From Amphiscolops sp. MND2022 (taxonomy: Eukaryota): DNA of 64,000 bases. A program made the position numbers and the translations under genes. Numbering within the stretch: the stretch's first letter is position 1; each line of letters opens with the position of its first letter. Shown here one piece after another: positions 3,482 to 38,881 of this stretch. The notes under the pieces were generated by a model that did not search any database, was not told where the DNA came from, and saw only the letters and a program-made list of their open reading frames with translations. The stretch lies in assembly GCA_964187785.1 (NCBI GenBank), contig OZ076409.1:3598001-3662000 (forward strand), written 5' to 3'.

Positions 3482-3744
3482 GTTTAAACTGAAACGTGAT
3501 ACCAAACGTGACACATAAACAAACTGAACGTGTGATTGTTCTTTAATTATAATACCACAAATTGAATTGCATGTCATCCAAATGAAGGCAAAGGAAAAGA
3601 AACTATTGACATTAGGACATGGAATGATGAAAACAAGTTATGAAAGAATGTGTTAATTGATGAGCTATGTCAAAGCCAGCTGGGACATTAAACAAATCAA
3701 AAAGTTAAATAACAAAAGTTTATACAGTTATAGCTAAAAATGTA

Positions 3745-12774: not shown

Positions 12775-13963
12775 CTGTGAAAAATAACGTCATTATCTGA
12801 AAAAAAACGAACTTGTAATAACATAAGAGCACAGTAAAGAACAGCGAACCATAGTCGTAAGGTAAATTAAAATAACAACAAGGTGTTAATGGAAACATTT
12901 GTACGAGTGGATGTAAAAATTGTTTTAAACGGAGTGAAAGGAAAACACGTATTGCTTGATGCATGACTAATAAAAGTTTAAAAACCCATAGTTAATGTCA
13001 TGAACACGGAAAAACTTAAAACAAGGGTCATTGAAAGGGTTGATGAACAACCACTGCAAATGAGACAACGGTGTAGCATAACGTAAATCAAATCGAAGGC
13101 ACTGAACGTACGCGTTAGATGAAAATGAACATTACAGTCAAACACCTCCCTCGAAGCACTGGTTCCTATCGAAGTAGAAAATTGAAATTGTCTTACGTAA
13201 GTATTTGTTTCAACACATAAAACTTGTGAAATAGTTACAAAACAGGGTATAATAAACAAATGGTGGCGGTCTATATCGAACATTACCACATTTTGACACC
13301 GGTGAAACCCCAAATAACGTAATTTTTCATTTCCTGATATAGAAATATTTCAATGTAGCTGAAAAACAGATTTGGGAAAAATTCGCAATTTTTAGAATTT
13401 TGGTAGAACTTTTGTAGAACTTTTTATTTTTTATTTTTTATCCTGAACACGCGATGTTGAAAACACATCGACTGTACTGCTACCGCTCAAGTAAACATCA
13501 TCTCATCCAAAGATCGGAAGTTATGACGCGATGACCGGAGAATTCACATTTTTCCACTGATTAATCTACTTCTATCTCTCAGCCTAGTATTACCAGCCTA
13601 ATGATTTTTGGCATGCGAACAACTGACATCATTTATGCCTCGCATACAAAGTATCAGCCAATTGTATCCACATGCTGCAGATTTCGCAGCGAAAAAGTAC
13701 CGAAACAGGGTGAAAAAACCGATCATTTGCTCATAACTTCCCGCCAAGTAATAGGATCGTGTTTGGTCAGCAGAACATCAGTCATACATCGGCAAGATAA
13801 GTGCACATGCAAAGTTTCATCAAAATCCTACGGTTCAATTCGAAAATCGCTGTTTTTTACCGACTGACCGAGAGGTATATAGTTCGACATGCGAAAGTTG
13901 AGCTCGGCATCGGGACCCTCCCCGGCCTCGCACTAAATAATGTGGGGAGGTTCCCCTGACCAC

Positions 13964-14998
13964 CCAGTGGAGGCAAAGGTACAATCACGAGAAAGGCCGT
14001 AATGACATTCTAGAGGTAAGCAATGAGGCAAAAGTCACAGGATAACAACCATCAATTGTTTGCTTTGTACAAAAGTTGCTCAAAAGTGTTCTTTCATCAG
14101 CAATAATTCATCCTATACCGCACGCACGAACCACCACAGGTGATGTTCAGGCCATGGTTGTTTGTTATCACCGTTCTTCCTCCGAACTGCTTCGCGGTCC
14201 TCCGGAGAACGGTGATGTTGTTATTTACAAGGCAACAAAAATATACTGACAAATTCAGTTCCTACAAGTGAAAGAACAGTTCAGTTATGTCTGATTTACT
14301 TTTTCTGACCTCTGAAACCTCTTTAATTGTCACCCTAAGCGCAGAGTCACTTCTTTTTTGCGTTCAAAATGTGAAAAAGCATCGAAAAATGAGAAAATCT
14401 TTTTTTTTTGAAAAATTCGCATTTTTTAGAATTTTGGTAGAACTTTTGTAGAACTTTTATATTTTTTATTTTTTATCCTGGCCAGGTGATGTTGAAAACA
14501 CATCGACTGCACTGCTACCGCTCAAGTAAACACCATCTCATCCAAAGATCGGAAGTTATGACGCGATGACCGGAAAATTCACATTTTTCCGCTTCTTTTT
14601 CCACTCTTATCTCTCAGCCTAGTATCACCAGCCTAATCATTTTTGGCATGCAAACACCTAACATCATTTATGCCTCGCATGCAAAGTATCAACCAATTGT
14701 ATCCACATGCTGCAGATATCGCAGCGAAAAAATACCGAAAATGGGTGAAAAACCCGATCATTTGCTCATAACTTCCCGCCAAGTAATAGGATCATGTTTG
14801 ACCAGCAGAACATCAGTCATACATCGGCAAAATATTAACACATGCAAAGTTTCATGAAGTTCTAACGGTTCAATTCCGAAATCGCCGTTTTTTGACAGGT
14901 GATCTAGTGGTATATAGTTTGACACGCAATACTTGAGCTCGGCGACGGGACCCTCCCCGGCCTCGCACTAAAATATGTGGGGAAATACCCCTGACCAC
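13964..14998 (-). mobile_element. Non-autonomous unit A (1035 bp, type 1)
   Basis: Bounded by GACCAC|CCAG junctions; carries the shared conserved block; stem-loop at 14167-14216. Confidence 0.85.
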
Positions 14999-16045
14999 CC
15001 AGTGGAGGCAAAGCTACCAATTACCAGGGGGCCGAACGGTACTGCCTGTTCTCAATTCATGTATAACTTGTTCCACTTTGGGGTCACTGATGTGAATTTT
15101 TGCCGATGCACATCGCAACGACGTACATAATCATGTCGAACAAAACTAAACAGTGACTGCCTTCGGTCGTAACAAGTATCTACAGCCTTTCTTCCGGGTC
15201 ACCGTTGTTCCTGCGTGCTGCTGTGCATCCCTCGGAACACCGGTGACAAATAAAATTACGTTTTAAAATCGTGCTACTTATGCATTTGCCTCAACCCTGA
15301 GTATTTTTCAAATACTTACTGAAACTGGTATATCAAGCTGGTGAAAGCGGTCAATATTAAAAATAAACCCATTTTGGCGCCGTTGACACGATAAATAATG
15401 TGATTTTTGAATTCCTGGTATAAAAATACAATGGAATCCGAAAAAATTTTTTTTTTGAAAAAATTCGCAATTTTTAGAATTTTTGTAGAACTTTTGTAGA
15501 ACTTTTTTATTTTTTATTTTTTATCCTGACCACGCGATGTTGAAAACACATCGACTGTACTGCTACCGCTAAAGAAAACATCATCTGTATAAAAGTTCGG
15601 AAGTTATGACGCGATGACCGGAGAATTCACAATTTTCCACTACTTTTTCTACTTCTATCTCCCAGCCTAGTGTCACCAGCCTAATGATTTTTGGCATGCA
15701 AACACCTGACAACATTTATGCCTCGCATGCAAAGTATCAGCCAATTGTATCCACATGCTGCAGATATCGCAGCGAAAAAGTACCGAAACAGGGTGAAAAA
15801 ACCGATCATTTGCTCATAACTTCCCGCCAAGTAATAGGGTCATGTTTGACCAGCAGAACATCATTTGTACATCGGCAAGATAAGTACACATGCAAAGTTT
15901 AAAGAAGTTTTATCGGTTCAATTCGAAAATCGCCGTTTTTTGACTGGTGTGCTAGATGATATAGTTCGACACGCGAAAATTAAGCTCGGCATCGGGACCC
16001 TCCCCGGCCTCGCCCTAAATAATGTGGGGAACTACCCCGGACCAC
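14999..16045 (-). mobile_element. Non-autonomous unit B (1047 bp, type 2)
   Basis: Same junctions. First 29 bp (ccagtggaggcaaagctaccaattaccag) are identical to those of element 2. Stem-loop at 15198-15247. Confidence 0.85.
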
Positions 16046-17215
16046 CCAGTGGAGGCAAAGCTACCAATTACCAGTGAGGCGTGAGAAGTTTCATTGTTAC
16101 GTCGTTGTTTTTCTTATGCGAAAGTGAAAACATAACGTATTAGACAATCAGGACTTTGTATGTCGTTATTATGAACATGGTTACAATTTTGAGGAAAAGC
16201 AGGTGTCACCCGTAACAATTCAATTCATTATAGGAAGCTTCAAAACTGAACAATTCAAGGTATTTGAATTTCATTCGTAAATGTTAAAACGTTTAGGGTT
16301 ACAACTAATGCAGTACGGAAAAGAGTTATGAGATCATTGATACAAAACAACGGAATAGTCAGCAAAGGACAAAACAACTGCGACATGTATAAAATGTAGA
16401 CCTCTCGAAATTCGGAGGTAAACTTTAGGTTGATATGACTGCTATATGTAATGCTATACACAGAGATCAGAAGAGTAAAAAGAGTGTACATTTTGTTAAC
16501 AGTTGTCGTTATTGGTGGTGGCCAGAAAAGGCCACGGGGATTACAGTTTCTAAACCAAATTGGTATAACAACACTACGCATAACACCAAATTTGAAATGA
16601 GCTGAACGAAAGTATCATGATTAAAACAATGTATAGGGATTATGAAGAGAACATGCTAAGTAAGTAATTGACTCATTATTGGGTAGGGTAAGTTGTAAAA
16701 TAATGTTAAAATTGAAACAGGTGTGAATAGTGGTAACTATGAAGAGTTTCTCATCGAATTGAACTTGTAGACACGTTAAAAAAGTCTATACACATAAACA
16801 AATAAAGCAAAACTGTTATTTCTAGATATTGCCAAAAGACATCGACGTGAATAACCTATGTCAAAATTTGCCGAATTGTATACCCGTATGTGTTTAAATA
16901 TGTAAAAATTAGGTAAAAAACATCTGTATTTAAAACAACGACCTGGGTTGACGAACAACCACAAGGTGGATGATGAAAATACCAAAATGTGTGAATTTTA
17001 AAACAACGACCTGGGTTGATGAACAACCACAAGTTGGATGTTGAAAATACCGAAATGTGTGAAAATAGAAAGCAAGGATTGGCGATGAACCGCATCATTG
17101 ACAGGCAATGTGGTACAAGGACAAGGGCAACAAACAGTGACTGTTGATTTATAGAAGGCAAAACATCAACAGTTCGGGAAAAGCGTTGATGTTAAACTTT
17201 GGGATCATTTGGGGA

Positions 17216-18229
17216 TCAATCGTGACCAGCTGGTCGGAGAGGAGGCGGAGGATTGTCATCGTGATTAATTTGGCCAACATCGTACTTCCGGTCGTCAGGA
17301 ATCATTACGGTTGCCCTAATTCTGCATATTTGGACACGACTAATAGTTTGAGCAATGTTTTCTTCAGATAGTCCGCTTTTATAGTAACCGGTCACAAGCC
17401 AACCACCATTGTCGTTGACATACTGCTGAATGTTACGTACACATTGCCTCAAACGATGAACAACGATATCTGTAGCCGGAAGAGCCAGTGTTCCAGTGGT
17501 ACAAAAGATTTTGTTTAACTGCAAACTCTGAAGGACTTCTCCAGATAGAGGATCTTCTTCCACATTGTCAATAGCTGTGGAAAAAATTCGGCAACTTATG
17601 GCCCAAGCGGATACAGCACTCTTTTGAATGCATGCGCAATTGCTACTTTTCACAATTCGTCTATCGCAGAAGACGCCACTGCAAGTAGGAGAAGCGATAT
17701 TTGTTTGAATGAATGACAATTGAGTGTTGTTCAGCTGGAACTTCGTGAGCGCAGTTGTTAACGGGTTTATAACAATAGGAGACGGACGAAGGTTGATACC
17801 ATTGTGGGCAGCAAGCTCTAAAGGTCTTCTAACCTCGAAAATTGGGTTACTGCGGTCGTTTCCTAGGCACAACCCACTGAAAATGGGCTCGTGTACATGC
17901 ACTAGAGCACCTACAGTCAAAAGAGGGTGTCTGAATATACTTGATGATTCTTGGGCGGTAGTAGTTATTACAGCAAAACATGCTGCCGATTGAAGTTCCC
18001 CAATTATAACCAATCTATCGTAGGACGAATCCATAGAAGTTTTTTTAACTCTCCCTACATTAGGACGAAAGGTCTGCAATGGCCTATCGTGACGCTTTGC
18101 AGTTAGAATTATACCCGACACATATGTGTCTTCACTTTCCCGGAGGAAGTTAGGATGGATGACATCAGTAACATTAACTTCGCGCAAGTTTGCCATGAAT
18201 CCTGAAATGAACGTAAACATCAACCACAA
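17216..18229 (-). CDS. Accessory protein of unknown function, possibly OB-fold ssDNA-binding with a Cys cluster (probable ATG at 18196)
   Basis: Uninterrupted 337-codon ORF inside the element. Beta-strand-like pattern (VSGIIL, RLVIIGE, LTVGALVHVHEP) and C-x4-C-x9-CxC. The OB-fold call is inference only. Confidence 0.65.
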   Translation of the reverse strand: MWLMFTFISGFMANLREVNVTDVIHPNFLRESEDTYVSGIILTAKRHDRPLQTFRPNVGRVKKTSMDSSYDRLVIIGELQSAACFAVITTTAQESSSIFRHPLLTVGALVHVHEPIFSGLCLGNDRSNPIFEVRRPLELAAHNGINLRPSPIVINPLTTALTKFQLNNTQLSFIQTNIASPTCSGVFCDRRIVKSSNCACIQKSAVSAWAISCRIFSTAIDNVEEDPLSGEVLQSLQLNKIFCTTGTLALPATDIVVHRLRQCVRNIQQYVNDNGGWLVTGYYKSGLSEENIAQTISRVQICRIRATVMIPDDRKYDVGQINHDDNPPPPLRPAGHD

Positions 18230-20416
18230 AATTAATTAAACGTCAACCGATGATGTAAAATATACAGCAGTGGTCAGTGGGGTAACAGTATATGAAACGC
18301 CACAAAGAGATCACATTTTACAAAACGTGCTGAAAGGATATCTTTTCACGTCGCTTAGGAAAACAACAGGTTAGCCATTAAAAATTATCGTAACGGATTT
18401 TAGAAAGTTTAAGGAGTCTTTAAATTTCAATTCAGGTGCCTTTCAAGTATGAAGACGATGCGCAAATTTTAATCATATAGGCCCGGGTAAAAAAAAGAAA
18501 TACCGGAAAGGCAATGTTGAAGTGCTAAATTTGTAGATGACGTTTCAAACGACTGGACTTTATTACAGTAATCAAATGCGATAGTGCATTGAAATGCAGA
18601 ACTAAAAAGCATTGATTGAATCCGTTTAAAACCTTGAACAAAAACTCATGAACTATCAGCAGTTTATCAGATGAAAATCAGTGACACTTGCAAAATTGGC
18701 AAACGGAAGTGTCAACTCTTTTTGGTTGTCAAAACTAATTGGACAATAGCGTAATAAGGATATTCAATGTATGTGTTTACAGTAACGCCGTAACAAGATC
18801 CATTAAACAACCTTTATCCGGTGGGTGAATGACTCTCAATGACGAAGTTTCTTTTATGCAAAATACAATGAAACAAAACAAGTTAATTGTTTTAACTGAA
18901 ATAAAACAAAATGTATCACAAGGGCGTAACATTATAACGCCCAATAATATGCACTTTAAAAGTCTGAATTACATTAGAACATTCGTGAACAAGTAATGAA
19001 ACCATCCACCAAACTCAATTGCATTTCTTCTACGAGGGAATTGCCCATGTAACAGATGAATATATAGTGCGGAACCAAAAACGCCAACGCAGCTAAGGGA
19101 ACCTTCAACAAATGGTAACAAGGTGCATATCAAAAAACTTGCTTGATTTGCACGCAAGCGTGCAAATCAAGCCGATCCTGTTGGTGATTTATGTATGAAG
19201 AGAAAGACAGTTTTGATTTCAAAAATGCCATTTTTTGGAGGTTGGAAAAGACGCAACAATAAAATGCTGTGAATTTCTGAATTCATAGTCAACATAGGTT
19301 GAAGGTATGTGGTTCCAAAGGAGAAGCGGAAGGAGGCATATTTTGGTTGCCGTAAAGTACTGAATTGTCAGACGTGAAATTGTTTGTAACTCAAAAAAAG
19401 TAAAAACAAAAAACTGCTCTCAATGTAAGTGTTCAAAAGGGTTGAAGAACAACCACTGGATAATGCTGATATAAGGCTGATACATGAGTGCAACATGTTC
19501 GTCAGTGAAAGACGTGTAACAATGATCAAAATCACAAACACAACATTTGTACAAAATTCTTTTACAAATCCGGAGTTGAAGCCAGTCCTAGATAATATAG
19601 TACAACGCGAATAATAACACTGAACGAAATTGTTGAAATCATTTGAAAATCATTGGAATGAGAATACATTGTAATTAGTTGTTTGAAACAGTCGTGAACT
19701 GTCTAAAATTAAAGAGACAACCAGATGAAGAATGATGACAAGGGTTGAAGAGTTCAGTGTTCAGATAATCAATGAGCAAATAAGGCAAATTTGTTACGAC
19801 TAGTTCAACTCAATCTTCAATCCCAAAATATTGCAAATTGAGCTACGAAATGCACTTGTGCTGTTGGTCACAAGACGCTGAAAAGTAACAAAAACAAAAC
19901 ATTCTGCGGAAAACCAATGTTTTCAAGCTAATTATGATTTCACGCCACACTTGCAGATGTAAATGGGGAAAACTGCAAAACGAAAGACTAGTAAATGAAA
20001 CTGTGTATTAATATCAGGTTTGAAACATGACCCATGTACGATTTGTGTACGGCTTGGAAGGAATTAAAAACGTCCGGTTTAAAGGTATTGAAAATAAGTT
20101 TCAAAAGTTGATACGGAAAGGTAAGTTGATGTTAGTAAAAAAATTCATTGGAAAAAAAATCGACACAAAATGAAGACCACATTTGAAAGAAACAATGAAA
20201 AGAAAATGTCATTTTAAAATGTATGACAACGTAACGAAACATTCTACGTTAAGAATCGTTATTTTCAATTAAACATCTGAAAAACTTGAAACGCTTGCCG
20301 TACCAACAAACAAATTATAAACTGCAAGCTGGCCAACAAATCGGTAATTCAGAGAAAAAAGTTCAAATTGCAATGATAACAAAATCATGAGCAGAATAAA
20401 TCTGTATTTCCGATAA

Positions 20417-21010
20417 CTAACGACCTTGATTACGACGTCGCTGCGCAGAGCGGTTCCTGTTAATTCTTTTGTACAGCATCAATTGATGCAAGTTATTTGC
20501 ACCAAACACACGTTGAATGAAATGATGTTCGACTTCAAGATTGACATGAAAATAGTTCATTGCTAGCAAATCACGATAGTGTCTTGACAGTAATGTTCGT
20601 AATTTGATAAAGACGATATTTTCATTGAAGGGCTCCAAATGATCGTCCATATTGAACACCGCATCAGGCCTTGGAATGTAGCAAAAGGCAACAACATTCA
20701 ATCTTCCCAGCTGCTCTAGTTCAGCCCGAAACTGCACTGGGCTTAGGGGCTGCGTTGATTGTGTCGGATGATGCGAAATACTGTTGGATATAACATCGTG
20801 CCACAGTATATACTGTTCTGTTCTCCAATTTCTTTTCCTAATTACTTCATGCACATTTTTCAGACAATTCGAATTGACAAGGGACATTCCTGGTTCTGTG
20901 ACAATCTGATTTTCGAAAGGCCACAATTGGAAAGCGGGGTTATTGATGGCGTGGTGCAAACTGGAGGCCCCAATTACAGTTACTTGCATCTTCGATCTGT
21001 AAATGAGCAA
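20417..21010 (-). CDS. SGNH/GDSL hydrolase-like accessory protein (probable ATG at 20989)
   Basis: VTVIGASS resembles block I GDS, EPG block II, WHDVISNS block III, NYFH block V DxxH. Basic C-terminal tail. Homologous copies at 1-57, 3010-3481 and 21156-21326. Confidence 0.65.
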   Translation of the reverse strand: MLIYRSKMQVTVIGASSLHHAINNPAFQLWPFENQIVTEPGMSLVNSNCLKNVHEVIRKRNWRTEQYILWHDVISNSISHHPTQSTQPLSPVQFRAELEQLGRLNVVAFCYIPRPDAVFNMDDHLEPFNENIVFIKLRTLLSRHYRDLLAMNYFHVNLEVEHHFIQRVFGANNLHQLMLYKRINRNRSAQRRRNQGR

Positions 21011-21155
21011 TGATGATTATGGTGAATTTTGTGAAAGGGAAAACTAAACTTATCAATTGCCGACAAAGCACACTTGAAAAATTTGTCAAAACTGTAAATA
21101 ATAACCCCAATTTTAAAATTACTTTGAAAACGATATAACGAACTAAAGGGGAAGG

Positions 21156-21326
21156 TTAGTTTAACTTTTTCCGAACAACATGGTACACATTTTTGTATGA
21201 ATGTAAATTGTTTTGGGAGATCCCTGGCTCCGGTATGACACTGGTTCCATACAAAGTGCAATTAGAATTTGAACGTAGCATCGCATAGTGCAAGCTTGAT
21301 GCACCGATCACCACCACAGGCAACAT
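21156..21326 (-). pseudogene. Truncated second SGNH-like copy (56 aa)
   Basis: MLPVVVIGASSLHYAMLRSNSNCTLYGTSVIPEPGISQNNLHSYKNVYHVVRKKLN*, homologous to the N-terminus of 20417-21010. Confidence 0.7.
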
Positions 21327-21930
21327 GTTTGAAGTGAAAAGCGATCTGAAACGTTACACATCCACGGGAAGTGATTATATCACTGTTGCATATAATAAGA
21401 AAACGAAATGTAATGCATGTTATTCAACTTAACGCAATGTAAAAAAATCATTGTAATTAACTCACGGATTGGTGACAAAAAAAAATTGAACGTAAGTGTT
21501 TAATTTTAAGCTTTTGTAACGCCAAATAAGAAATTAGCATTAAGGGACAACTAAAAAAGCAACATTTTGTAAAATTATGTTTAGGAAGTTTCTTCACGTA
21601 ATGACGCTACGAAGTTTGTTTGCAGTGGAATCTTCATAAAGCAAAACAGGTTCACAAGATGCATCCACAGAGCACGTGATTCGGTAAAGAAACCGGGTTG
21701 ACGGACAACCACGATAGCAAGTATGGATCTCGGAAATTTTTTTGGGTTGACGAACAACCACAAGGTCAGCTGAGAAGATGATGAGTCGGAAGTTATTAGC
21801 TGTGACTAAGAGTATAACAATTGGGTTGAAGTACAACCACGTTTAATGAGTTGAAGTACAACTACATAGCCAAGGTAAAAAGGACCGCTGGGGTATTGAA
21901 TCACGAGCACGATTTCCACTAGCGTAAGAT

Positions 21931-24900
21931 TCACAGCTGCGGAATTAAAGAGTCACAGTTGAGACCTGACTCCACTCCATTAATTTTGTATAAATCCATT
22001 AAAACGTGACACTCAGAAAGGTAGTCAACGGCAGAAACTTCTGTTGATGCCAAATGACGCGCTTCCATTGACCGTTGCCAGTCAGCTTCAAACTGGGCGT
22101 GAGTCCGCCTAGATACATCAGAAAAGCCGTGAACAAAGGCAGCCAAAGCCCATGGGCGTCTCTCAATTGGTCGTGTAAAATGACTACCCGTCCCGGCGTT
22201 GTGTTGCGACAAACGTTTGCGGAGATTCATACAAGAGCCAATATAAAACAAGTTGCGGTGAGGAACGCTAACCAAAAGATAACAGAAACCAATGGAAGCA
22301 GATGGAACATCAAAATGTTTCAGGGGGAAGGGATGGAATTGTTGGCACTGGGCGATGCGACCAGAACCATGTGAGTACATCTGCAGGAGGGATTCGATGT
22401 ACCACAGAAGATGATTTTCTTTCCGGCAGAGCTCTTTTATTGCATTCAAAGTTTCGGTTCTGTTTCCAACGAAAGTGATGTGTGATAAATCAGTAACTCG
22501 ACTTACAACAACATAAAGTTGTTCTTTGGCCCACAGTAAAAATTTCTTTGCACCGACAATTTGCGTTGCCAAAGACGGAACAGTATCGCCCATTATTTTA
22601 TGATAGGTGGAAGCAACGTACATTTTAACAGGTAACTGAATTCTGCGACAAACCATTCCGCTGTTCAGTCTGTGGATGACACCAACTTGTTTCCTAAGGA
22701 GTACAGAACGCCAACGTTGTATGTTCATGTTTGAAAAGGATAACGACCTAACACCAACGGGTGCTATTCTGACAGTAATTGTGTGCGAGGACTCGTCGAA
22801 AGCCTGAACAACACAAAGCTGGCCTTGAAAGAGTTTCAAACTAGGAAGGTTACAAGTGAGTCGCAAAACACAAGACACATGAAGAAACAAAGATCGCGGT
22901 TCTGGGCAGTTGTGGTTTAGAAACCGTGCTACAGTTTCAGTAGCTTTCATCCAGTTCTGGGAACCACTGTTCGACATTTCGTCGTGACATTCAAAAACAG
23001 CAAACTGAATACTTGGGTCTCGTCGAACAAACTCTATCCGTTGCTCAATAGCTTCTTTCTCAGCGCTTCGAGTTGCAAACACGCGAAGGTCGTGCAAAGA
23101 AACGTCGGACCATTTAGGGACGAAATTACAGTAAGTGTTTACAATTTGAACGACTTGATCACATTTCTCGGGCGATATGGGATACTCCGATAAAAGATTC
23201 AATAAAAGTTTACCGTACAAATTCTGCATACGAACATACTCTTTTAAAAGATAAATTTCAAAAGTGGCCAGTACTGTGTTGCTCATGAGCAATAGCATAC
23301 CGCAGGGTGGAGGTAACTGACGGAAGTCCCCAGTGGATATAACCAATTTACCTCCGAATGGAACAGATGTGTCAGAAACTTGCTGCATGACGCAGTCCAT
23401 AGCAGACCAAAGTTCGGCAGAGACCATAGACACTTCTTCTACGAAAATAATGTCCAAAGCCTTCAAAACGAAAAACTTAACTGGGTCTCTCGCCAATCGA
23501 TTCAATGCATGTGACACCAAATGAGAAACACTGTTGATATCAGAAACAGGGAATGGAAATAGGGCGTTTATATGCCGTCCACCTAAAATGGCAGAACGCT
23601 CAGCTGCCAAACTGGTTATAATGCAAGAAAACCCTTTTGTCATAGCAGACACCACGCAATGAATCATGACATGACTTTTACCTGTTCCAGGTGGACCAAG
23701 TATAACCTGATGTTTTATGAAAGAAGTTGTAGAATTTCGGTATTGCTCCATTGAATCGCATATGGCGTCCAGAATGCTTTGTTGATGAACCAAAGACTCC
23801 GAATTTTGGTTTTGACCCGGGATTATTACAGGAGGCCATGAAAAGGGCGATTGCAAGGTGGCATTGAGTAAATCGGATGCTGAAGGAAGTCCGTGGATAC
23901 CTTGATTTACAACAGCTGTAACAATCCTTTCTTTAATTGAACGAAGCTCCTCGACCACGTCTTCGGATCGCTGTTCCACGACGCTCTCTTCGAGAACCCG
24001 GGGGACAGCACAGGTATACTGCAACAAATTATGCTGAGTGGCCCCAGAAAGATAATTGTGGGCAACACAAAGAAAACGATCCAACAATGACGACGAACCA
24101 GGATAAAAAATTAGCTGTTCCAAAAGAAAGCGACGTGTGATTTGCGAAACCTCTGAATTGTCACAACCTGATCTGCTTTGACACAGACCAGCAGTGTGGA
24201 ACGCTTGAATAATGGAGCTGTTAGCGAACAAATCTAACTCGGTGGTGTAAGATCCCAATGTCAGAAGAATATGGATGATAAAATTGGAGGAATCTCGTGG
24301 CAGGACGTTAGAAAAGACTACTTGACGACAAGTAGCGAACTTGTTTTCACAGAGAAAGTTATTTTGATGTTGACTTCGCAAGCAGGCTAAAGCTTCTAAA
24401 CAGTTGAGATTGAAGGAATTGTCCTTGGTGATGTAATTGGTGCAAAATGAGACAAAGGAATCGACGTAGTATGAATTTAGAAGAACAATGTAACCAAGAC
24501 CGTCTGTCCACAAAGATTCTTCCACTGTTGCCTTGATACAGGATTCAGGTGCCTGCTGTTTTTTTGGTTTGAAACGTAAAAACCACGTGAAGTATTGCTC
24601 AACAGATCTGACAAAACGTAATTCCGGGGGTCTAACACCAAAAATTGTCACTTTGTCAGGTGTCAAAGTGCTTTTTTGCGTGTCAATAATGAGAAATATT
24701 TGGTTGTTGGTAAATTGCCGATGAGAAGGAAGAGACAAATTGCGACGAATAGCGTTTTGTCTAGCATACAACCCAGCTTGGTTGTGGCGGGATAACCTAC
24801 GCTTCTCGAGAATGACACCGGAACGTTTCTCTTTAGGTGCAGTGACCACGTGCACAAAGGATATATTGGAAACGACGTAAGGGAAGCGGAGAGACCACCA

Positions 24901-27900
24901 CGCGGATTCAGTTAAGCTGATAACTCTACCTGTGAAAGTGTTTCTTTTACGTTTGCGACTGAATGCAGGACTGCTCAATTCAACACCCGCAATCTTTTGA
25001 TTAGTCATGGGGTCAATATCGAACGAAAATGTATTTTGTTGAGTTGAACTGCGAATGGAAACATGACTTCGTTCCTCGACTCCGGCCGCGTATTTGGCAA
25101 GATACCGAGCACTCATGTATGTATCGCAAATTTGAAGATTTGTGCTGGAGCGAACTAAAGCAAAAATGCGAGCGTTCGTGGGAGAATAATGCGAGTTCTG
25201 ATCAGTTGGATAATGATGCTTGCCACCACACAAAACAGGATCCAATACAGTTTTGCAAATATCGGCGTCAAATTTTGCAAGTCCAAGTCTTTCAAGAAGT
25301 GACAGGGTTTCTGGGGAAAGGTGCTTGTCTATTGGTTTGTAGGAGAAATCATTAGCTGGAGGATACTTAGGAACTCTACAAACTGACTCTGCAAGCTTCG
25401 TGGTTTTTTTATGACAGCGGAATTTGGCTTTTTTACAACTGTGAGATTGAAACTTTTGAAATAAATCAACCAAATGGTTCGTTTCTGTGGAAGACAGTTT
25501 GTTGTTTCCAACGGACGCAATCAAGGATCCTAAGAAAGTTGATGGTGAACAACAAACACGGGACCGGACAACGTTTGAGTTAACGTCTTCACCTGTCCAT
25601 ATCAGAGCATGAATATGCGGGAACGCACTTGTCTGATCTTGGAACTCATAACGGAACCAAAGTTTTGAAATCCGACCCAAAGGTTCTTCGGGGGACGTTT
25701 CGATGTATTTCATAACCAAAGCAGAGCTACGTTGCCAAGCCCGTAACATGACTATCATTTCGGCCTGAATTGCAGACATTCTGTTTTCTTTTGCGGAACC
25801 CGACGGGGGATATTTTTTGTCCAGAGCAGCAAAAATTTTCCGTAAGCCTGGATGAGTGGATTGACTGCAGGTGTACGTAAAAAAATAGGTTGCAGGCTGC
25901 TCACGAAGAGCAGCACTCAATTCATTAACATTTTTTCGAGAGTCACTCTGATCAAAAGATATTGAAGTGTCGCAAACTTTCTGAGACTGCTGATAATCTT
26001 TGGCAGCTGCACCCCATCCTCTGTTCAAAATCACTCGGCTGTCATGTTCTCTGAGTTGGAGGTTGAACAGGGTGTCGAATGCAAATTGAATGTAACGAGG
26101 ATCAGAAGATGTTAAAAGCGAAGAATCCATCAAACGAGTTTTTAAATGATTTTCCAAAGTGGCGTATCCCAAGTACTTGTTGCTTTGAGGGTTGTTAAAT
26201 AGGCTGGATGGTAAAGAGCCAGGATAACTTCCATCAGCGTTCTGTTTCCAAAAAATTGATGGAAACATCATTGCCTCAGGTTGGTATAATGGAACAGACA
26301 TGGGGGACGATGTAGCGGTAACGTTTTCTAACATTCGCTTAAATCTGGCAGCCACGTACAAAGGAGATCCCTGACGGCGTTTCAAAAGGCCACATTGACC
26401 ATTCAACAATATATGGAGCGGGAGTTTAAAATCATCATTCACATGTACATTGTCAGAAGTGACATTGGGGGCGACGCCCACGCGGGTGTGTGTAGGTATT
26501 GAAATAGAGGAAGCAGCCGAAGACTCGACAGTGAACATAGCATTTGTAACAAGATTAGCAGAACTTGAAGTGCTTGGGGCCTCTTCGAAAGATGAAGAAA
26601 CGTGGGAGTCAGCGCGATTGATGGATGTGGAGTCGTTGGAACCGTTATGAAAAACGGAAGCAATATTCGTTTGTTCGTTGTCATTGTCTTTATACCGTGT
26701 AGGCTCCACAATGTTGACCTCACAACACTGGGATGTGTGTTGTTTGCAAACACAAGCGGAGCATGCGGCGTGAGGACAACGAATAAAAGACGTACGACCA
26801 CAGCGACACGTGAAACCACTTTTCTGCAGGTCACGAGTTAAAGGAATGTGATGAATGTCACACAAAAATCTACCTTGACCAGCCATGGACGTCATAAAAT
26901 GTTTTTTTATATCGGCAGCTGACGTCTCACATGTTCGGTAGTAAACAGCCAACCGCCAGTAACCGTTAATGTACTGATCAACAGCTACATCAGGAGACAA
27001 GGGAACACGCTTCGGACTCCCGGAACTTTGATCGTAAAGCCAAAATTTATGAAAGGGATCTCCATGTCGAACGAGTGCTCTGTTGTTTTGACTACGGGAA
27101 TCAGAGAAAACATTTCGCAACTCAAAATGACCACCGTCAACAGCGGTAAGAGAGAGAGGCAGAGTATGTTTACTGCGCAATGAATTCATACCATTGTATG
27201 AAAAAATTACAATATCGATGCCTTCAAGGGTTCCATTGAAGCGACAAGCAATATCAGGACGGTTAGTGACAACGTGAAATTCAATACATGGAGAAGATTT
27301 GGAGATGTAGAGACCAACGTCGTCGTGAATGGAACCGGAAGAAACGTGCAATTGCTCTGGAATATGAAACTGTGGATTTGAAGCATTAGTCCATTTCGGG
27401 AAAATAACAGTATCAAGCATCCCCAAAATTTGAAGGACGGTTTCATCAGGGTTACTCACTGACGAAATTATGTCACACAAAGTCGGCGAAATCACAAAGA
27501 GTGATTGAAGCAACAGCAATTTTGAATTTTTGAAACAGACTAACTTTGGAGGATTTGCTCCATGGTAGTTAGGAGGATGCGCAAAAGTAATGTTTCTGAA
27601 TTTTCCCAAGATTGTGTCATTGTAGGAAGTAGAAAAAGTGCTCAACATTTTTCTTGTATCCACCAAGGAGACTGAGGTGGAAGACTCCAGCAACATGTCA
27701 GACTTAACCAGGTCACAATGAGTTTTAACCAAAATGGCTTGAGCAATGGAATGTTGTAATTCGCCGGAAGCGACTAATTGGTGCAATAAATACTTAACAT
27801 CCTGTCGATGGTACGCACATTGCGCTTCAGATTTCACCAACAAATCGGAAGTGATGTCCCATCGTCTTTTCGAGCTCAATTGAATGCTACTAATACCAGA

Positions 27901-30393: not shown

Positions 30394-31546
30394 TATCTGG
30401 AAAACAACAAAAGTGTAGAAACATAACAGCAGAGTAGAGAATTGGTAACCATAGTCTAAAAGTTTTTCAAAGTAGCGCGTTGTTAAATGAAACTATTGTA
30501 TAACCGGACAAAGCGGGTGTTTCAACCGGAGTGTAATGAAAAAAAGGTTGCTTCAATGACTACAGTAATTTCAAAACAAGCCTAATATAACTTTTCATTA
30601 ACACGGAAACACTTAGAACATCAGTCATCGTATGGGTTGATGAACAACCACTGAAAATGACAGGGACAAACGACATTAAATATACCATCAAAACATTAAA
30701 GGCACTGTAGGTACGCGTTCCATAAAATTAAGCATAACCGTCATACATTCATGGGAATACCGGTCACAGTCGACATATGTTGATAATGTTATACGTATGT
30801 ATTTGTCTTGAAATACTCAATGGAAAGGTATAATAAGCGGGCGGAGGCGGTCAACATCAACTATTAAACCATTTTGACGCCGCTTACATGAAAAGTAACG
30901 GTATTTTTGAAATCTAAATAAACGAATACTTTGAGAACAGGCAAAAAACTGTATTTGAAAAAATTCGAAATTTTTAGAATTTTTGTAGAACTTTTGTAGA
31001 ACTTTTTTGTTTTTTATTTTTTATCCTGACCACGCGATGTCGAAAACACCTCGAATGTTCTGCTACCACTTGAGGAAACACCGTCTGTACAAAAGTTGGG
31101 AAGTTATGACGCGATGACCGGAAAATTCAAAATTTTCGGTTACTTCTTTCACTTCTATCTCTCAGCCTAGTAACACGAGCCTAATGATTTTTGGCATGCA
31201 TACACCTGACATCATTTATGCCTCGCATGCAAAGTTTCAGCCAATTGTACCCACATGCTGCAGATATCGCAGCGAAAAAATAACGAAAAAGGGTGAAAAA
31301 CCCGATCATTTGCTCATAACTTCCCGCCAAGTAATAGGATCATGTTTGACCAGCAGAACATCAGTCATACATCGGCAAAATATTAACACATGCAAAGTTT
31401 CATGAAGTTCTAACGGTTCAATTCCGAAATCGCCGTTTTTTGACAGGTGATCTAGTGGTATATAGTTTGACACGCAATACTTGAGCTCGGCGACGGGACC
31501 CTCCCCGGCCTCGCACTAAAATATGTGGGGAAATACCCCTGACCAC

Positions 31547-32583
31547 CCAGTGGAGGCAAAGGTACAATCACGAGAAAGGCCGTAATAACATTGTAGAGGT
31601 AAGCAATGAGGCGAAACTCACACGATAACGACCATCAATTGTTATGCATTGTACAAAACTTGCTCAAAACGGCTTCCTTTCATCTGCAATCTTTCATCCT
31701 GTAACGCACGCGCGAACCACCACAGGTGATGTACAGGCCATGTTGTTTGTTATCACCGTTCTTCCTCCGAACTGCTTCGCGGTCCTCCGGAGAACGGTGA
31801 TCTTGTTATTTACAATTTAACAAAAATATACTGACACATTCAGTTCCAACATCTGAAGCAACAGTTGAGTTATGTCTCATTTACTTTTTGTGACCTCTGA
31901 AACCCCTTTAATTGTCACCGTAAGTGCAGAATCACTTCTTTTTTGCGTTCAAAAAGTGAAAAAGCATCGAAAATTGAGAAAATTTTTTTTTTCGAAAAAA
32001 TTCGCAATTTTTAGAATTTTGGTAGAACTTTTGTAGAACTTTTTATTTTTTTATTTTTTATCCTGAACACGCGATGCTGAAAACACATCGACTGTACTGC
32101 TACCGCTCAAGTAAACATCATCTCATATAAAGTTCGGAAGTTATGACGCGATGACCGGAGAATTCACAATTTTCCACTACTTTTTCCCCTTCTATCTCTC
32201 AGCCTAGTATCACCAGCCTAATGATTTTTGGCATGCGAACACCTGACATCATTTATGCCTCGCATACAAAGTATCAGCCAATTGTATCCACATGCTGCAG
32301 ATATCGCAGCGAAAAAGTACCGAAACAGGGTGAAAAAACCGATCATTTGCTCATAACTTCCCGCCAAGTAATAGGATCGTGTTTGGTCAGCAGAACATCA
32401 GTCATACATCGGCAAGATAAGTGCACATGCAAAGTTTCATCAAAATCCTACGGTTCAATTCGAAAATCGCTGTTTTTTACCGACTGACCGAGAGGTATAT
32501 AGTTCGACATGCGAAAGTTGAGCTCGGCATCGGGACCCTCCCCGGCCTCGCAATAAATAATGTGGGGAGGTTCCCCTGACCAC
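31547..32583 (-). mobile_element. Non-autonomous unit C (1037 bp, type 1)
   Basis: Left part resembles unit A; ends at GACCAC|CTAG; stem-loop at 31752-31801. Confidence 0.85.
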
Positions 32584-34725
32584 CTAGCGATGGAGCGATT
32601 TAGAGCACTGCTAGGTAGAGACCTAAACGAAACGGTTGAAAGTTTGTTACTGAAGTATGACACAAACAAATATCCCACGCGAAATCTTTTGTGTATGTTG
32701 TTCACAACTCAACAATAAAAATATCATCACACTGCCAAAATAGGCCAATGGTGACCTCCGTCACGTCACCAAAGAGGTATGTTGGGTTTTGCGTTCAAAA
32801 CAAGCACCGTTGTTCCCGCGAGATGCTGCGCAACTCACGGAACACCGGTGACAATGAATTTTGCTAGCCGATTTGCAACAACTTAATTAACACTTTCAGG
32901 CACTTTTTGGCATACCTTTTGCCCAAGGGATATTTTGCTCCTTACAGATAGTAAACCCCAACCCCCTAAGCAGTTTCAAGTTCGCTGCAGCTGCTTCGTG
33001 TGCTGCATCAAATGCAACTCAACGTGATGCAATGATTTATCATCCGATCAGTCATAATGCCAAAACTCAAAAAAATCAACTTTTTTCAAATGTCTCCTAC
33101 AGGTGAACGAATTACATTTTTGGAACCCCCATTGGATGCTGACAATTTTTGACCTTATGGTCCGAGACCGTGCGGACCGTTCCGGCTGCTCAAATCATCA
33201 AATTGATCAAAGTGATTCAGTCAAAAAAATTAATTTGGCACTTTTCGGCACTTTGGTTGCCCCCTGGGGGAAATTTTTTTGGACCGTTCGAAAGACCGTT
33301 GACCGTTGATGATTTTCATAAATGTGCACTTTGCCGCTACGGGCTTTCCTTCATGGTGAAAATGGCCTTTGATTCGGTCATTGATTAATCAAAGATGAAA
33401 AAAGATGAAAAAAAAAACCAAAAAACGCAAAAAAACCCTACAAAATGAATTTTCCTGGAAAAACGTCAGCAGAAAAAAGTTCTTAAATTTTTGTCATGAA
33501 GCCACATGCAAAGTTTCAGACAAATCCTACGGGTGAATTTCGAGATCGGTTAAAATACTTCGCAATCCTGAAGGTAGGAATTGATAGAATGTGCTCGGCT
33601 CTCGGGACCCTCCCCGGCCTCGCAATATTTTCTGATGGGCATCCCCCTTGACCACCTAGCGATGGAGCGATTTAGAGCACTGCTAGTAAAAGGCCTAAAC
33701 TTAACAGCGCAACCTTTGCTAATGGAGTATGAAAAAGAAATATTGAGGCTAGCAATTTTTTGTAAGTTATTCTGGGATTGAACGATAAATATCATCACCC
33801 TGACGAGTGAATGTCTATGGTGACTGCCGTCAACTTAACTCAAGGGATTTTGTGGTTTTTTGCTTTCTAAGCAAGCACCGTTGCTCCTGCGAGATGCTGC
33901 GCAACTCTCGGAACACCGGTGACAATAAATTTTGCTGATCGATTTGCAATAACCAAATCATCACTTTGAGGCATTTTTTGGCACAACTTATGCCCTAGGG
34001 CTATTTTGCTCTTTACAGAGGGTAAACCCTAGCCCCATAATCAGTTTCAAGTTTGCTGCAGCTGCTTCCTGTGCTGCATCATATCCAACTGAAAGTGATA
34101 CAAGTATTTCTCATCCAATCACTCATAATGACATATACCCCAAAAAATCAACTTTTTTCTGATGTCTCCTACAGGTGAACGAATTACATTTTTGGAACCC
34201 CCATTGGATGTTGACAATTTTTGACCTTATTGTCCGAGACCGTGCGGACCGTTCCGGCTGCTCAAATCATCAATTTGATCAAAGTGATTCAGTCAAAAAA
34301 ATAATTTTGGCACTTTTCGGCACTTTGGTTTCCCCCGGGGGGAAAATTTTTTGGACCGTTCGAAAGACCGTTGACCGTTGATGATTTTCATAAAAGTGCA
34401 CTTTGCCACTACGGGCTTTCCTTCATGGTGAAAATGGCCTTTGATTCGGTCATTGATTAATCAAAGATGAAAAAAGATGAAAAAAACCAAAAAAACGCAA
34501 AAAAACCCTACAAAATGAATTTTCCTGGAAAAACGTCAGCAGAAAAAAAATCTTAAATTTTTGAGATAAAGCCACATGCAAAGTTTCAGACAAATCCTAC
34601 GGGTGAATTTCGAGATCGGTTAAAATACTTCGCAATCCTGAAGGTAGGAATTGATAGAATGTGCTCGGCTCTCGGGACCCTCCCCGGCCTCGCAATATTT
34701 TCTGATGGGCATCCCCCTTGACCAC
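32584..34725 (-). mobile_element. Non-autonomous units D (32584-33655) and E (33656-34725), type 3
   Basis: Both begin ctagcgatggagcgatttagagcactgctag and end gggaccctccccggcctcgc...gaccac. Their interior is strongly diverged from the other types. Stem-loops at 32805-32850 and 33876-33921. Confidence 0.85.
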
Positions 34726-36797
34726 CCAGTGGAGGCAAGGAAACTAATTACCAGAGTGGGCGGGCGGCTTCTGTTGAATTAAATTTTAAAATACGCTACC
34801 AGTACTGTTCACTTTAGGTAACATCCATGGAAACGTTTTTCGTCTGTTCAACTGATGAAAAACTCTGTTTTTCATCAGTTTAACGAATGATTACATATCT
34901 CTCATTCCAACCACCCGGGTACTTCGTTATTTCTATCCGTTGTTCCTGCGAACTGCTTCGCATTTCTCAGGAACAACGGAGAAGTTGTTTCTTGAACTTT
35001 TTTCCGGGACAAAACAATGGCGGGACTTCTAACAAAAGAACAATTAGTTCTGTAAAGTGGCCACTCATCGACGAAGAGGTATGTGAAAATCCTTCAAGTA
35101 GTCATCGTAAGTGCAGCGTTACGTCATTTTCATGCTAAGAATGTGAAAAACCGTCGAAAAACGAAAAAATCTTTTTTTTGAAAAATTCGTCAATTTTAGA
35201 ATTTTTGTAGAACTTTTGAAGAACTTTTTCATTTTTTATTTTTTATCCTGACCACGTGATGATGAAAGTACCTCCAAAGTACTGCTACCGCTAAAGGAAA
35301 CACCATCAATACAAAAGTTCGGAAGTTATGACGGAATGACCGGATTTTTCACAATTTTCGGTTTATATTTCAGCTTCTATCTCCCAGCCTAGTATCACCA
35401 GCCTAATGGTTTTTGACATGCAAACATATTTCTTCATTTATGCCTCGCATGCAAAGTTTCAGCCAATTGTATCCACAGGCTGGTTGTACCGAGGCGTAAA
35501 CATGCCGAAAATAGGTGAAAAAACCGATCATTTGCTCATAACTTCCGACACAGTGTTGCAACCATGTTTTGCCAGGAGAAAAAAGTTCTTATAAGTTTGA
35601 GATCTACCGACACACAAAGTTTCATTCAAATCGTATGGCTCAATTCCAAAATCGCTGTTTTTCTGGACCCCTCACTCTAGATAGATATCTGACAGCATGG
35701 CTCGGACTCGGGGCCCCTCCCCCACCTCGCAAATATTCTGGTAGAGTATACTCGTGACCACCCAGTGGAGGCAAGGAAACTAATTACCAGAGTGGGCGGG
35801 CGGCTTCTGTCAAATTATATTTTAAAATACGCTACCAGTACTGTTCACTTTAAGTAACATCCATGGAAACGTTTTTCGTCTGTTCAACTGATGAAAAACT
35901 CTGTTTTTCATCAGTTTAATGAATGATTACATATGTCTCATTCCAACCACCCGGGTACTTCGTTATTTCTATCCGTTGTTCCTGCGAACTGCTTCGCATT
36001 TCTCAGGAACAACGGAGAAGTTGTTTCTTGAACTTTTTTCCGGGACAAAACAATGGCGGAACTTCTAACAAAAGAACAATTAGTTCTGTAAAGTGGCCAC
36101 TCATCGACGAAAAGGTATGTGAAAATCCTTCAAGTAGTCATCGTAAGTGCAGGGTTACGTCATTTTCATGCTCAGAACGTGAAAAAGCGTCGAAAACCGA
36201 AAAAATCTTTTTTTTTGAAAAATTCGTCAATTTTAGAATTTTTGTAGAACTTTTGAAGAACTTTTTTATTTTTTATTTTTCATCCTGACCACGTGATGAT
36301 GAAAGTACCTCCAAAGTACTGCTACCGCTAAAGGAAACACCATCAATACAAAAGTTCGGAAGTTATGACGGAATGACCGGACTTTTCACAATTTTCGGTT
36401 TATATTTCAGCTTCTATCTCCCAGCCTAGTATCACCAGCCTAATGGTTTTTGACATGCAAACATTTTCCTTCATTTATGCCTCGCATGCAAAGTTTCAGC
36501 CAATTGTATCCACAGGCTGGTTGTACCGAGGCGTAAACATGCCGATAATAGGTGAAAAAACCGATCATTTGCCCATAACTTCCGACACAGTGTTGCAACC
36601 ATGTTTTGCCAGGGGAAAAAAGTTCTTATAATTTTGAGATCTACCTACACACAAAATTTCATTCAAATCGTATGGCTCAATTCCAAAATCGCTGTTTTTC
36701 TGGACCCCTCACTCTAGATAGATATCTGACAGGAGGCTCGGACTCGGGGCCCCTCCCCCACCTCGCAAATATTCTGGTAGAGTATACTCGTGACCAC
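34726..36797 (-). mobile_element. Non-autonomous units F (34726-35761) and G (35762-36797), type 4
   Basis: Near-identical 1036-bp pair with the same junctions; stem-loops at 34936-34980 and 35972-36016. Confidence 0.85.
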
Positions 36798-37832
36798 CCA
36801 GTGGAGGCAAAGGTACAATCACGAGAAAGGCCGTAATGACATTGTAGAGGTAAGCAATGAGGCAAAAGTCACAGGATAACAACCATCAATTGTTTGCTTT
36901 GTACAAAAGTTGCTCAAAAGTGTTCTTTCATCAGCAATAATTCATCCTATACCGCACGCGCGAACCACCACAGGTGATGTACAGGCCATGGTTGTTTGTT
37001 ATCACCGTTCTTCCTCCGAACTGCTTCGCGGTCCTCCGGAGAACGGTGATGTTGTTATTTACAATTCAACAAAAATATACTGACAATTTCAGTTCCAACA
37101 ACTGAAAGAACAGTTCAGTTTTGTCTGATTTACTTTTTGTGACCTCTGAAACCCCTTTAGTTGTCACCGTAAGTGCAGAGTCACTTCTTTTTTGCGTTCA
37201 AAATGTGAAAAAGCATCGAAAAACGAGAAAATCTTTTTTTTTTTGAAAAATTCGCAATTTTTAGAATTTTTGTAGAACTTTTGTAGAACTTTTTTATTTT
37301 TTATTTTTTATCCTGGCCAGGTGATGTTGAAAACACATCGCCTGCACTGCTACCGCTCAAGTAAACACCATCTCATCCAAAGATCGGAAGTTATGACGCG
37401 ATGACCGGAAAATTCACAATTTTCCACTTCTTTTTCTACTTCTATCTCTCAGCCTAGTATCACCAGCCTAATGATTTTTGGCATGCACACACCTGACATC
37501 ATTTATGCCTCGCATGCAAAGTATCAGCCAATTGTATCCACATGCTGCAGATAGCGCAGCGAAAAAGTACCGAAAATGGGTGAAAAACCCGATCATTTGC
37601 TCATAACTTCCCGCCAAGTAATAGGATCATGTTTGACCAGCAGAACATCATTCTTACATCGGCAAGATAAGTACACATGCAAAGTTTAAAGAAGTTTTAT
37701 CGGTTCAATTCGAAAATCGCCGTTTTTTGACTGGTGTGCTAAAGGATATAGTACGACACGCGAAAATTAAGCTCGGCATCGGGACCCTCCCCGGCCTCGC
37801 ACTAAATAATGTGGGGAACTACCCCGGACCAC
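36798..37832 (-). mobile_element. Non-autonomous unit H (1035 bp, type 1)
   Basis: Left part nearly identical to unit A; right end resembles units B and I; stem-loop at 37001-37050. Confidence 0.85.
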
Positions 37833-38881
37833 CCAGTGGTGGCAAAGGTACCTTTTGCAAGCACTGGCCGTTATCCATTCTGTGAAAGTAGAGTTGCGGT
37901 AAAACGAAACCTACATTTGTACAACACTCATTTTAAAAACATGTTTTTACATACATTTTTTTTCACTATAACTGATTTCATATGTAACTGCAGTCACTTT
38001 TGCAGAAAAAGGGACTACAAGCGTTCGCTGCGGGTCACCTCTGTTCCTGCGTGCAGCTCCGCATCACTCGGAACACAGGTGACACTGTGTTTTTAGAGTC
38101 CAAATTGCGATACGTTTATATTTGTTTCCCAAAAACTGAAACCTGATTACTTCGTGATCCCGGGTAACAAACGAATGATATGATTAATACGATGCAAAAT
38201 AAAGCTGTTTTGAACACAGCGACGGTAAAAACAATGTCATTATTACATTCCTGAGAAAAAATTACGCTGGATTTGACAAAAATTTTTTTTTTGAAAAAAT
38301 TCTAAAATTTTAGAATTTTTGTAGAACTTTTGTAGAACTTTTTTATTTTTTATTTTTTATCCTGGCCACGTGATGTTGAAAACACATCGACTGCACTGCT
38401 ACCGCTCAATTAAACACCATCTCATACAAAGTTCGGAAGTTATGACGCGATGACCGGAGAATTCACAATTTTCCACTACTATTTCTACTTCTATCTCCCA
38501 GCCTAGTATCACCAGCCTAATGATTTTTGACATGCAAACACCTAACATCATTTATGCCTCGCATGCAAAGTATCAGCCAATTGTATCCACATGCTGCACA
38601 TATCGCAGCGAAAAAGTACCGAAATGGGGTGAAAAACCCGATCATTTGCTCATAACTTCCCGCCAAGTAATAGGATCATGTTTGACCAGCAGAACATCAG
38701 TCATACATCGGCAAGATAAGTACACATGCAAAGTTTAAAGAAGTTTTATCGGTTCAATTCGAAAATCGCCGTTTTTTGACTGGTATGCTAAAGGATATAG
38801 TACGACACGCGAAAATTAAGCTCGGCATCGGGACCCTCCCCGGCCTCGCACTAAATAATGTGGGGAACTACCCCGGACCAC
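37833..38881 (-). mobile_element. Non-autonomous unit I (1049 bp, type 5), last array member
   Basis: Begins with the hairpin ccagtggtggcaaaggtaccttttgcaagcactgg; stem-loop at 38034-38083; ends GACCAC|CCAGctataag. Confidence 0.85.

Follow-up and report, generated by a model that had tools for sequence, protein, structure and literature searches.

What does a small hairpin do when it recurs at the same place in every short unit of a repeat array and is broken in the long elements beside it? The question arises in a 64,000-nucleotide stretch of the Amphiscolops sp. MND2022 genome (GenBank assembly GCA_964187785.1, contig OZ076409.1, positions 3,598,001 to 3,662,000; hereafter the window, with coordinates counted from its first letter), which has a GC content of 39% and holds two long Helitron-like elements, each encoding a RepHel transposase, and two arrays of units of about 1.04 kb. 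An original prediction, made from the letters alone, had placed a stem-loop of about 50 nt in nine of these units and proposed that it works as a single-stranded DNA (ssDNA) or RNA element. We find that the hairpin is a real, selected structure in the non-autonomous members of a little-described branch of Helitron-like elements. The arrays and the hairpins, with loops read on the minus strand, are as follows.

13968 to 16049, minus strand: array 1, two short units (1035 and 1047 bp) lying between the long elements.
31551 to 38885, minus strand: array 2, seven short units (1035–1072 bp), in plus-strand order A C C D D A B.
14167 to 14217, minus strand: hairpin of tail type A (A1), loop GAA at 14191–14193.
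15198 to 15247, minus strand: hairpin of type B1, loop ACA, the sole copy off the GNA rule.
31752 to 31802, minus strand: hairpin of type A (A2), loop GAA.
32804 to 32850, minus strand: hairpin of type C (C1), loop GCA.
33875 to 33921, minus strand: hairpin of type C (C2), loop GCA.
34936 to 34982, minus strand: hairpin of type D (D1), loop GAA.
35972 to 36018, minus strand: hairpin of type D (D2), loop GAA.
37001 to 37051, minus strand: hairpin of type A (A3), loop GAA.
38034 to 38083, minus strand: hairpin of type B2, loop GGA.

All nine predicted positions fold, with z-scores of -1.3 to -8.8 against 100 dinucleotide shuffles (RNA and DNA parameters, both strands), the weakest being the copy at 33876. 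Eight of the hairpins are the eight most stable non-overlapping 56-nt windows in both arrays, and the ninth ranks 17th on the plus strand. Their distance from the 3′ end of the unit, predicted at about 200–220 bp, measured 195–215 nt to the junction across tails that cannot be aligned with one another, and the distance to the head is 191–227 nt. The tails are of five types, which follow one another in mixed order, and the nine hairpin copies represent only six distinct variants. Between tail types, identity is 61–86% in the hairpin versus 43–65% in the flanks (about 46% in shuffled sequence); in an anchored comparison of the five types it was 0.66 in the two hairpin bins versus 0.22–0.40 in the remaining 17. 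Outside the hairpin no 6-mer was common to at least four of the five types, the first 20 nt past the junction and the last 25 nt before the head being excluded.

Substitutions among three independent close pairs of units fell on 4 of 153 hairpin sites versus 148 of 1223 flanking sites (p = 5.5e-5; the evidence from A1/A2 or D1/D2 taken singly is weak, with p of 0.05 and 0.18), and the hairpin is under purifying selection. The outer stem had been said to change while continuing to pair, and this is borne out by 6 of 23 long-stem pairs that are altered on both sides among the six variants, a count reached by 3 of 500 shuffles, although the six include the terminal pair, at which the alignment is less secure. 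Covariation was 0.238 as against 0.101 ± 0.032 for shuffled and at most 0.101 for slid controls, with the tool's own warning that related sequences can beat the shuffle control. A covariance model built from the six variants recovered the nine copies at 66–76 bits, six of them matching by construction, and nothing else in the window exceeded 11.5 bits save the reverse strands of the copies themselves.

The apex can be drawn in two registers, either as an inner 6-bp hairpin with a 4-nt loop, as first described, or as a continuous stem with a 3-nt loop. The former exists as one register, but the continuous stem fits more closely and is the better supported. The inner helix of the 4-nt-loop register shows one both-sided change on the plus strand and none on the minus strand, where it is 69% paired; the long stem has two inner both-sided changes, and its invariant G and C columns pair with each other. 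Folded as RNA, the 4-nt-loop core has a pairing probability of at most 0.06, and the apical pair of the long stem reaches 0.97–0.98 in four of the six variants. Folded as DNA, the apical pair reaches 0.86–0.97 on the minus strand in four of six, and the 4-nt-loop core 0.5–0.8 on the plus strand in three of six. DNA ensemble energy is lower on the minus strand in five of six variants, and the mismatch cells of the long stem on that strand comprise 15 purine-purine versus 6 pyrimidine-pyrimidine. The comparison of G-U with A-C pairs that had been suggested for identifying the functional strand depends on register, favoring plus with the 4-nt loop (8 versus 5 cells) and minus with the long stem (6 versus 2), and is not decisive by itself.

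On the minus strand, which is the transposase-sense strand, the cap reads GC-GNA-GC in eight of nine copies and five of six distinct variants, where N is A, C or G; the pattern was spotted after the fact, with a rough chance estimate of 1 in 100. Among the 64 triloops, GNA is the only form described as forming a very stable DNA mini-hairpin (PMC13037366), and the terminal hairpins of the Fusarium Helitron2 elements FoHeli1/2 are likewise capped C-GAA-G (PMC5148889). All 11 stable folds in the window with a C-(G/A)NA-G cap lie on the minus strand, nine of them being the unit hairpins. Selection and covariation thus uphold the part of the prediction that spoke of function, and as to form the evidence leans toward ssDNA of the minus strand. 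The D tails contain a further hairpin:

34850 to 34880, and also 35886 to 35916, minus strand: second hairpin in D tails, 14 bp with a C-AGA-G cap.

The units themselves are non-coding, non-autonomous members of the Helitron-like system. They lie upstream of each RepHel gene, and all nine measure 1035–1072 bp. Read on the minus strand, a unit consists of a junction, a head of about 600 bp, some 200 bp of spacer, the hairpin and a tail of some 200 bp. Every junction (11 of 11) has CTRG-GTGG-TC in minus-strand reading, and since the R of CTRG tracks the tail type ending there, the break lies somewhere in the invariant stretch. Termini are common to autonomous and non-autonomous members, as is expected within the superfamily; in seven aligned heads the last ~200 nt occur as three variants, of which long and short members have two in common, and the final 3′ 25 nt of element 2 are those of B1.

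13372 to 13967, minus strand: head of long element 1, its last ~200 nt matching the A2 head with 0 and 2 differences per 100 columns.
30954 to 31550, minus strand: head of long element 2, its last ~200 nt identical to the A1 head.
38872 to 38899, minus strand: outermost junction, CTRG-GTGG-TC, flanked by a ~173-bp repeat whose next copy has CCCAG at the same spot.

The head ends are thus swapped between element/unit pairs (13372–13967, 14408–15002, 30954–31550 and 31992–32587), element 1 resembling A2 and A1 resembling element 2, a pattern that points to recent exchange. The single outer flank suggests that the array inserted beside a sequence that mimics the element's own 3′ end; the ~173-bp repeat that houses it (38881–39323) has short motifs in common with the heads. 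Unit length holds at 1035–1072 bp even between types that cannot be aligned (A versus C, about 50% identity), and the segment lengths of roughly 200, 50, 200 and 600 hint at a nucleosome or packaging ruler.

Both long elements encode an open RepHel, and accessory genes accompany it.

4339 to 12774, minus strand: RepHel ORF 1 (open reading frame), 2811 aa from the first Met, open, with HUH Rep, PIF1 helicase and C-terminal GIY-YIG.
21931 to 30393, minus strand: RepHel ORF 2, 2820 aa from the first Met, open, its GIY-YIG domain nearest to SLX1 in the PDB (E 2.5e-11).
17216 to 18196, minus strand: accessory ORF in long element 2, intact, a 326-aa OB-fold (oligonucleotide/oligosaccharide-binding) protein like RPA, LEF-3, CST and TEBP, with 823 relatives.
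20417 to 21016, minus strand: accessory ORF with no Pfam match, possibly SGNH-hydrolase-like, judged by a motif only.

The two long elements are colinear (82%), and both RepHel ORFs carry the Pfam domains Helitron_like_N, PIF1 and GIY-YIG together with the HUH, two-tyrosine and Walker A motifs; an HUH Rep joined to a PIF1 helicase in a single ORF places them among the Helitron-like elements. Their relatives are essentially unnamed (27 of 30 matches strong). The GIY-YIG domain aligns with SLX1 at its Y-x-G and arginine motifs and matches it more strongly than the small UPF0213 protein (E 1e-4). The 326-aa protein gave no Pfam or PDB match by sequence search and no usable ESM Atlas match. A single-sequence fold reached a pLDDT of only 33, and a fold based on a 126-row alignment (pLDDT 91) was used instead; the predicted structure matches the OB folds of RPA, baculovirus LEF-3, CST and TEBP (best Z 9.9, rmsd (root mean square deviation) 2.8, 94 aligned). 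The family, which has four invariant cysteines and no Pfam entry, also adjoins distant RepHel relatives in two other loci. Together these proteins supply an HUH nickase with a helicase and a structure-specific nuclease, and a likely single-stranded-DNA-binding protein (SSB). Downstream of element 1 lie a truncated RepHel N terminus and, in broken form, another copy of the small accessory ORF (1318–2169 and 3027–3469). A small-hairpin motif, GGTTG-N5-CAAC(C/T)AC, occurs in 18 copies on one strand only (616–4145, 13038, 16946–21824 and 30635), confined to non-coding DNA flanking the long-element genes and never found in short units.

The hairpin itself is not intact in the long elements.

13143 to 13166, minus strand: decayed single arm in long element 1, located by alignment and the top non-hairpin match to a position weight matrix (PWM score 14.9).
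30744 to 30767, minus strand: decayed single arm in long element 2 (PWM score 14.4; covariance model 9.9 bits, E 1.2).
19141 to 19172, no strand assigned: perfect 14-bp hairpin in non-coding DNA of long element 2, its most stable fold, unrelated to the unit hairpin.

A decayed arm had been noted for element 2 only; it is there, but element 1 has one too, both retaining solely the minus-strand 5′ arm at the homologous place, ~370–390 nt upstream of the first ATG. Both long elements resemble B-type units only as far as the apex of the hairpin. The covariance-model search found no intact hairpin in those parts of the long elements that lie inside the window (the 3′ end of element 1 is outside), and the far end of element 2 yielded no second arm. 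The hairpin at 19141–19172 is a possible substitute signal. It follows that the hairpin is not required by every member, and that either short units benefit from it or long ones are harmed by it near their start. For the same reason, that long elements with open ORFs carry no intact copy, the proposals of a universal RepHel loading site or a universal second-strand origin are weakened.

We consider it probable, on the strength of the strand, loop and protein evidence, that the hairpin is an ssDNA cis-signal of this system, whether for termination, for priming or for a nuclease. Within that, the reading we put forward tentatively is a termination/resolution signal displaced to ~200 nt before the 3′ CTRG. 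In it the short units would be non-autonomous rolling-circle elements, mobilized by the long elements' RepHel, which would nick at the junction and peel off the minus strand. The element's OB protein would coat the peeled strand, from which the GNA-capped, 50-nt imperfect stem would refold and stay exposed. There it would act as the 3′ terminator of a Helitron does, pausing or arming the transposase for a cut at the next CTRG junction ~200 nt on, and a unit-length circle would be released in place of run-through of the array. A long element could not afford such a signal 800 nt from its start, which would be why half of it survives there. The precedent is Helraiser, in which the 3′ hairpin is the terminator, the stem can be exchanged and the loop cannot, and loss of the hairpin raises read-through (PMC4778049); the unit stem likewise covaries while its loop stays. 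The canonical place for such a hairpin is vacant here: the folding energy of 9 of the 10 49-mers nearest the junctions is -0.6 to -4.1 kcal/mol, and there is no common hairpin among them.

Such a displaced signal accounts for the strand, the spacing and the loss in the long elements. It leaves unexplained why the distance is so long and why element 2 ends without a hairpin, at a junction that is nevertheless precise. Several observations weigh against it. The ~200 nt are about 20 times the 11 nt of Helraiser (PMC4778049), and the spacing to the head is about equally constant. CTRGG is absent between hairpin and junction in nine of nine tails, a result within chance at the rate of element 2 (8 in 14.9 kb). 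With DNA parameters the probability of the apical pair is just 0.04 in A1 and 0.22 in B2, the loop of B1 is ACA, and there are 8 G-T cells on the plus strand in the 4-nt-loop register. The evidence on the hairpin comes from one window and six variants. The moved strand is uncertain because the termini also fit a plus-strand Helitron2 with a reversed ORF, an arrangement on record (PMC3627910); together with the statement that left terminal sequences (LTSs) are more diverse than right ones (RTSs) (PMC11417382), this would make plus the moved strand.

The strand and loop evidence serves equally well for a second-strand origin, in which the hairpin would stay free of SSB on an excised 1-kb ssDNA circle and recruit host primase, yielding a double-stranded donor circle. 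Helraiser needs double-stranded donors and makes double-stranded circles (PMC5876387), mini-hairpins with poor SSB binding mark the priming sites of phage G4 and RSF1010 (PMC13037366), deltasatellites also bear a secondary stem-loop (PMC8615175), and RPA and CST are among the predicted fold matches of the element-encoded OB protein. Against this, the long elements lack the hairpin (element 2 does have its one other perfect hairpin), the fixed spacing is left unexplained, and the precedents are prokaryotic, recognition of the G4 mini-hairpin by primase being described as not demonstrated (PMC13037366); we regard such an origin as rather unlikely. Only marginally less doubtful is an RNA element, in which the head would drive transcription and the hairpin would be a small RNA or a 3′-end or processing signal, lost where transcripts must reach RepHel. 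It accounts for the loss in the long elements, given the place of the remnant upstream of the first ATG; as RNA the hairpins are just as stable (ensemble energy -19 to -31 kcal/mol), and G-U pairs fall on the plus strand in the 4-nt-loop register, where 31 of 36 inner cells are standard (85% in another count). That register is the one with almost no pairing as RNA, however, and the GNA rule is established for DNA (PMC13037366). The small non-coding RNA of the original prediction found little backing: Rfam 15 gave no match at the gathering threshold in the window and, at E ≤ 10, only 8 weak unrelated ones (30500–39000), and no common TATA, A/B box, T-run terminator, Sm or poly(A) motif stands at a fixed place on either strand, judged by consensus patterns.

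The GIY-YIG domain invites another explanation, in which the hairpin is its recognition or cut site and the long elements are "filled" sites that cargo entered at the hairpin, in a homing-like way. Bacterial Ssn GIY-YIG nucleases bind and cut beside specific ssDNA hairpins (PMC11893778), the domain here is SLX1-like with its motifs aligned, and the break in similarity at the apex is where such an entry would leave it. That break counts as a single event, because the two long elements are colinear; the missing arm did not turn up at the far end of element 2, a site that is merely cut should vanish from short units and not persist, and in the PDB the domain matches SLX1 better than it does the small UPF0213 protein. 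We think this improbable, and to the same degree the proposal that the hairpin has no function and is an old palindrome held symmetric by arm-to-arm repair. Template switching can mimic compensatory change, the independent variants are few, and their relatedness may beat the shuffle control. Symmetry alone would not retain the primary sequence, the loop and the mismatch positions, however, and it leaves the substitution deficit over three independent pairs and the constant position within unalignable tails unaccounted for. All other explanations together are very improbable. Two facts disfavor a host non-coding RNA array invaded by a Helitron: the junction at which heads and tails recombine is of Helitron type, and element 2 lacks the other hairpin arm at its far end. 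We dropped by eye, against consensus patterns, a hepatitis delta virus-like or hammerhead ribozyme, a selenocysteine insertion sequence (SECIS), Y or vault RNA and a small nuclear RNA gene driven by a proximal sequence element; also a spliced leader or Sm RNA, an Sm-like tract following the hairpin in C-type units only, and an IS608-style guide sequence, of which only 4 nt match the junction and which is absent from type D.

How does this system compare with those described? With Helitron1/Helraiser it has in common a RepHel partner, a hairpin upstream of the CTRG end with kept loop and variable stem, and head-to-tail junctions (PMC4778049, PMC5876387). It differs in that the hairpin is 50 nt long with fixed mismatches and lies ~200 nt from the end (19 bp and 11 nt in Helraiser; PMC4778049) and is absent in intact form from the long elements, and Helraiser matches the RepHel here only weakly and in the helicase (E 4e-6). 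Of the HLE1 termini (5′-TC, CTRR-3′), CTRG and TC are present at 11 of 11 junctions but with GTGG between them, the short hairpin 10–12 nt before the 3′ end is lacking in the weakly folding junction-proximal stretches, and insertion at A/T can be judged at one outer flank only, which resembles the element's own 3′ end. The Helitron2/Helentron, HINE/DINE-1 and FoHeli group offers a short asymmetric inverted repeat across joined ends (PMC3627910, PMC4067079, PMC5148889, PMC11417382), a terminal hairpin with, in FoHeli1/2, the same cap, an extra nuclease, an RPA-like gene and multiple termini. Such pairing spans 8–9 bp in 3 of 11 junction folds here (13967, 15002 and 31550) and 5 bp at 16049, and there is none in C-type tails. 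The nuclease here is an SLX1-like GIY-YIG and not a C-terminal AP endonuclease, the hairpins described are terminal whereas this one is internal, the arrays here are of mixed type with near-equal unit length, and no TT, the insertion target of that group, occurs at any of the 11 junctions, 10 of which are unit-to-unit. One HLE2 element carrying GIY-YIG, in Sphagnum, is mentioned (HELIANO; PMC11417382).

Outside the Helitrons, the sequence form GC-GNA-GC on the minus strand and an SSB in the system recall the DNA mini-hairpin sites of the phage G4 origin, RSF1010 ssiA and the N4 promoter, the enzymes of which are prokaryotic (PMC13037366); no primase gene was found in the window. By analogy only, one may compare begomovirus deltasatellites, which are small, non-coding and uniform in size, travel as passengers of a rolling-circle helper, and carry an A-rich tract and short direct repeats besides a secondary stem-loop (PMC8615175), whereas here no TAATATTAC origin is seen at the junctions, no capsid gene was found and the arrays are integrated. 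Paramecium Helitrons and their Mosaic satellite combine one LTS with several RTSs and equal-length distinct units in mixed order, but Mosaic units are ~44 nt, RTS stem-loops are terminal and the elements lie within telomeric repeats (PMC13085455); the terms GIY and SLX1 are absent from that paper as a whole. The Ssn/SRM nucleases are small single-domain GIY-YIG proteins, and the domain here is fused to a 2800-aa RepHel and nearer SLX1, its cutting role being putative. A literature search made without most subscription journals and Repbase reports found no internal conserved hairpin in non-autonomous Helitrons, no SLX1-fused RepHel and no such mixed arrays.

Copies were also sought elsewhere. 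A degenerate hairpin pattern gave no match in viral contigs, where 0 of 21 RepHel candidates were confirmed. RepHel relatives of 27–39% identity were found in 14 metagenome loci, none with a covariance-model match better than E 0.28, and the six loci examined for 1-kb arrays had none. The one locus from a genome collection, a RepHel relative at 53% (positions 3–2510; 2.5 kb, all of it coding), lies in a contig of a bacterial metagenome-assembled genome labeled Candidatus Poribacteria, probably eukaryotic DNA in the bin. The window further contains a nine-copy tandem array with a 575-bp unit at ~99% identity (49442–54609), a reverse transcriptase remnant split by a stop (47037–48185) and a short-chain dehydrogenase ORF (61522–62250).

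A broader picture, which we offer as speculation and think rather unlikely in its entirety, is that the short units are ssDNA satellite circles, matched in size at ~1.04 kb, that belong to a Helitron branch not yet described and stack by insertion at their own CTRG junction into mixed, cassette-like arrays, with the internal GNA-capped hairpin as a dedicated signal of this eukaryotic rolling-circle transposon, either a second-strand origin or a site for the SLX1-like domain. Three matters are unsettled in Helitrons generally: how the ssDNA circle becomes double-stranded, how copying of a tandem array stops at unit length, and what role a fused extra nuclease plays. As a selected 50-nt structure that every short unit has and both long elements have in broken form, the hairpin offers a small and directly testable handle on these questions.

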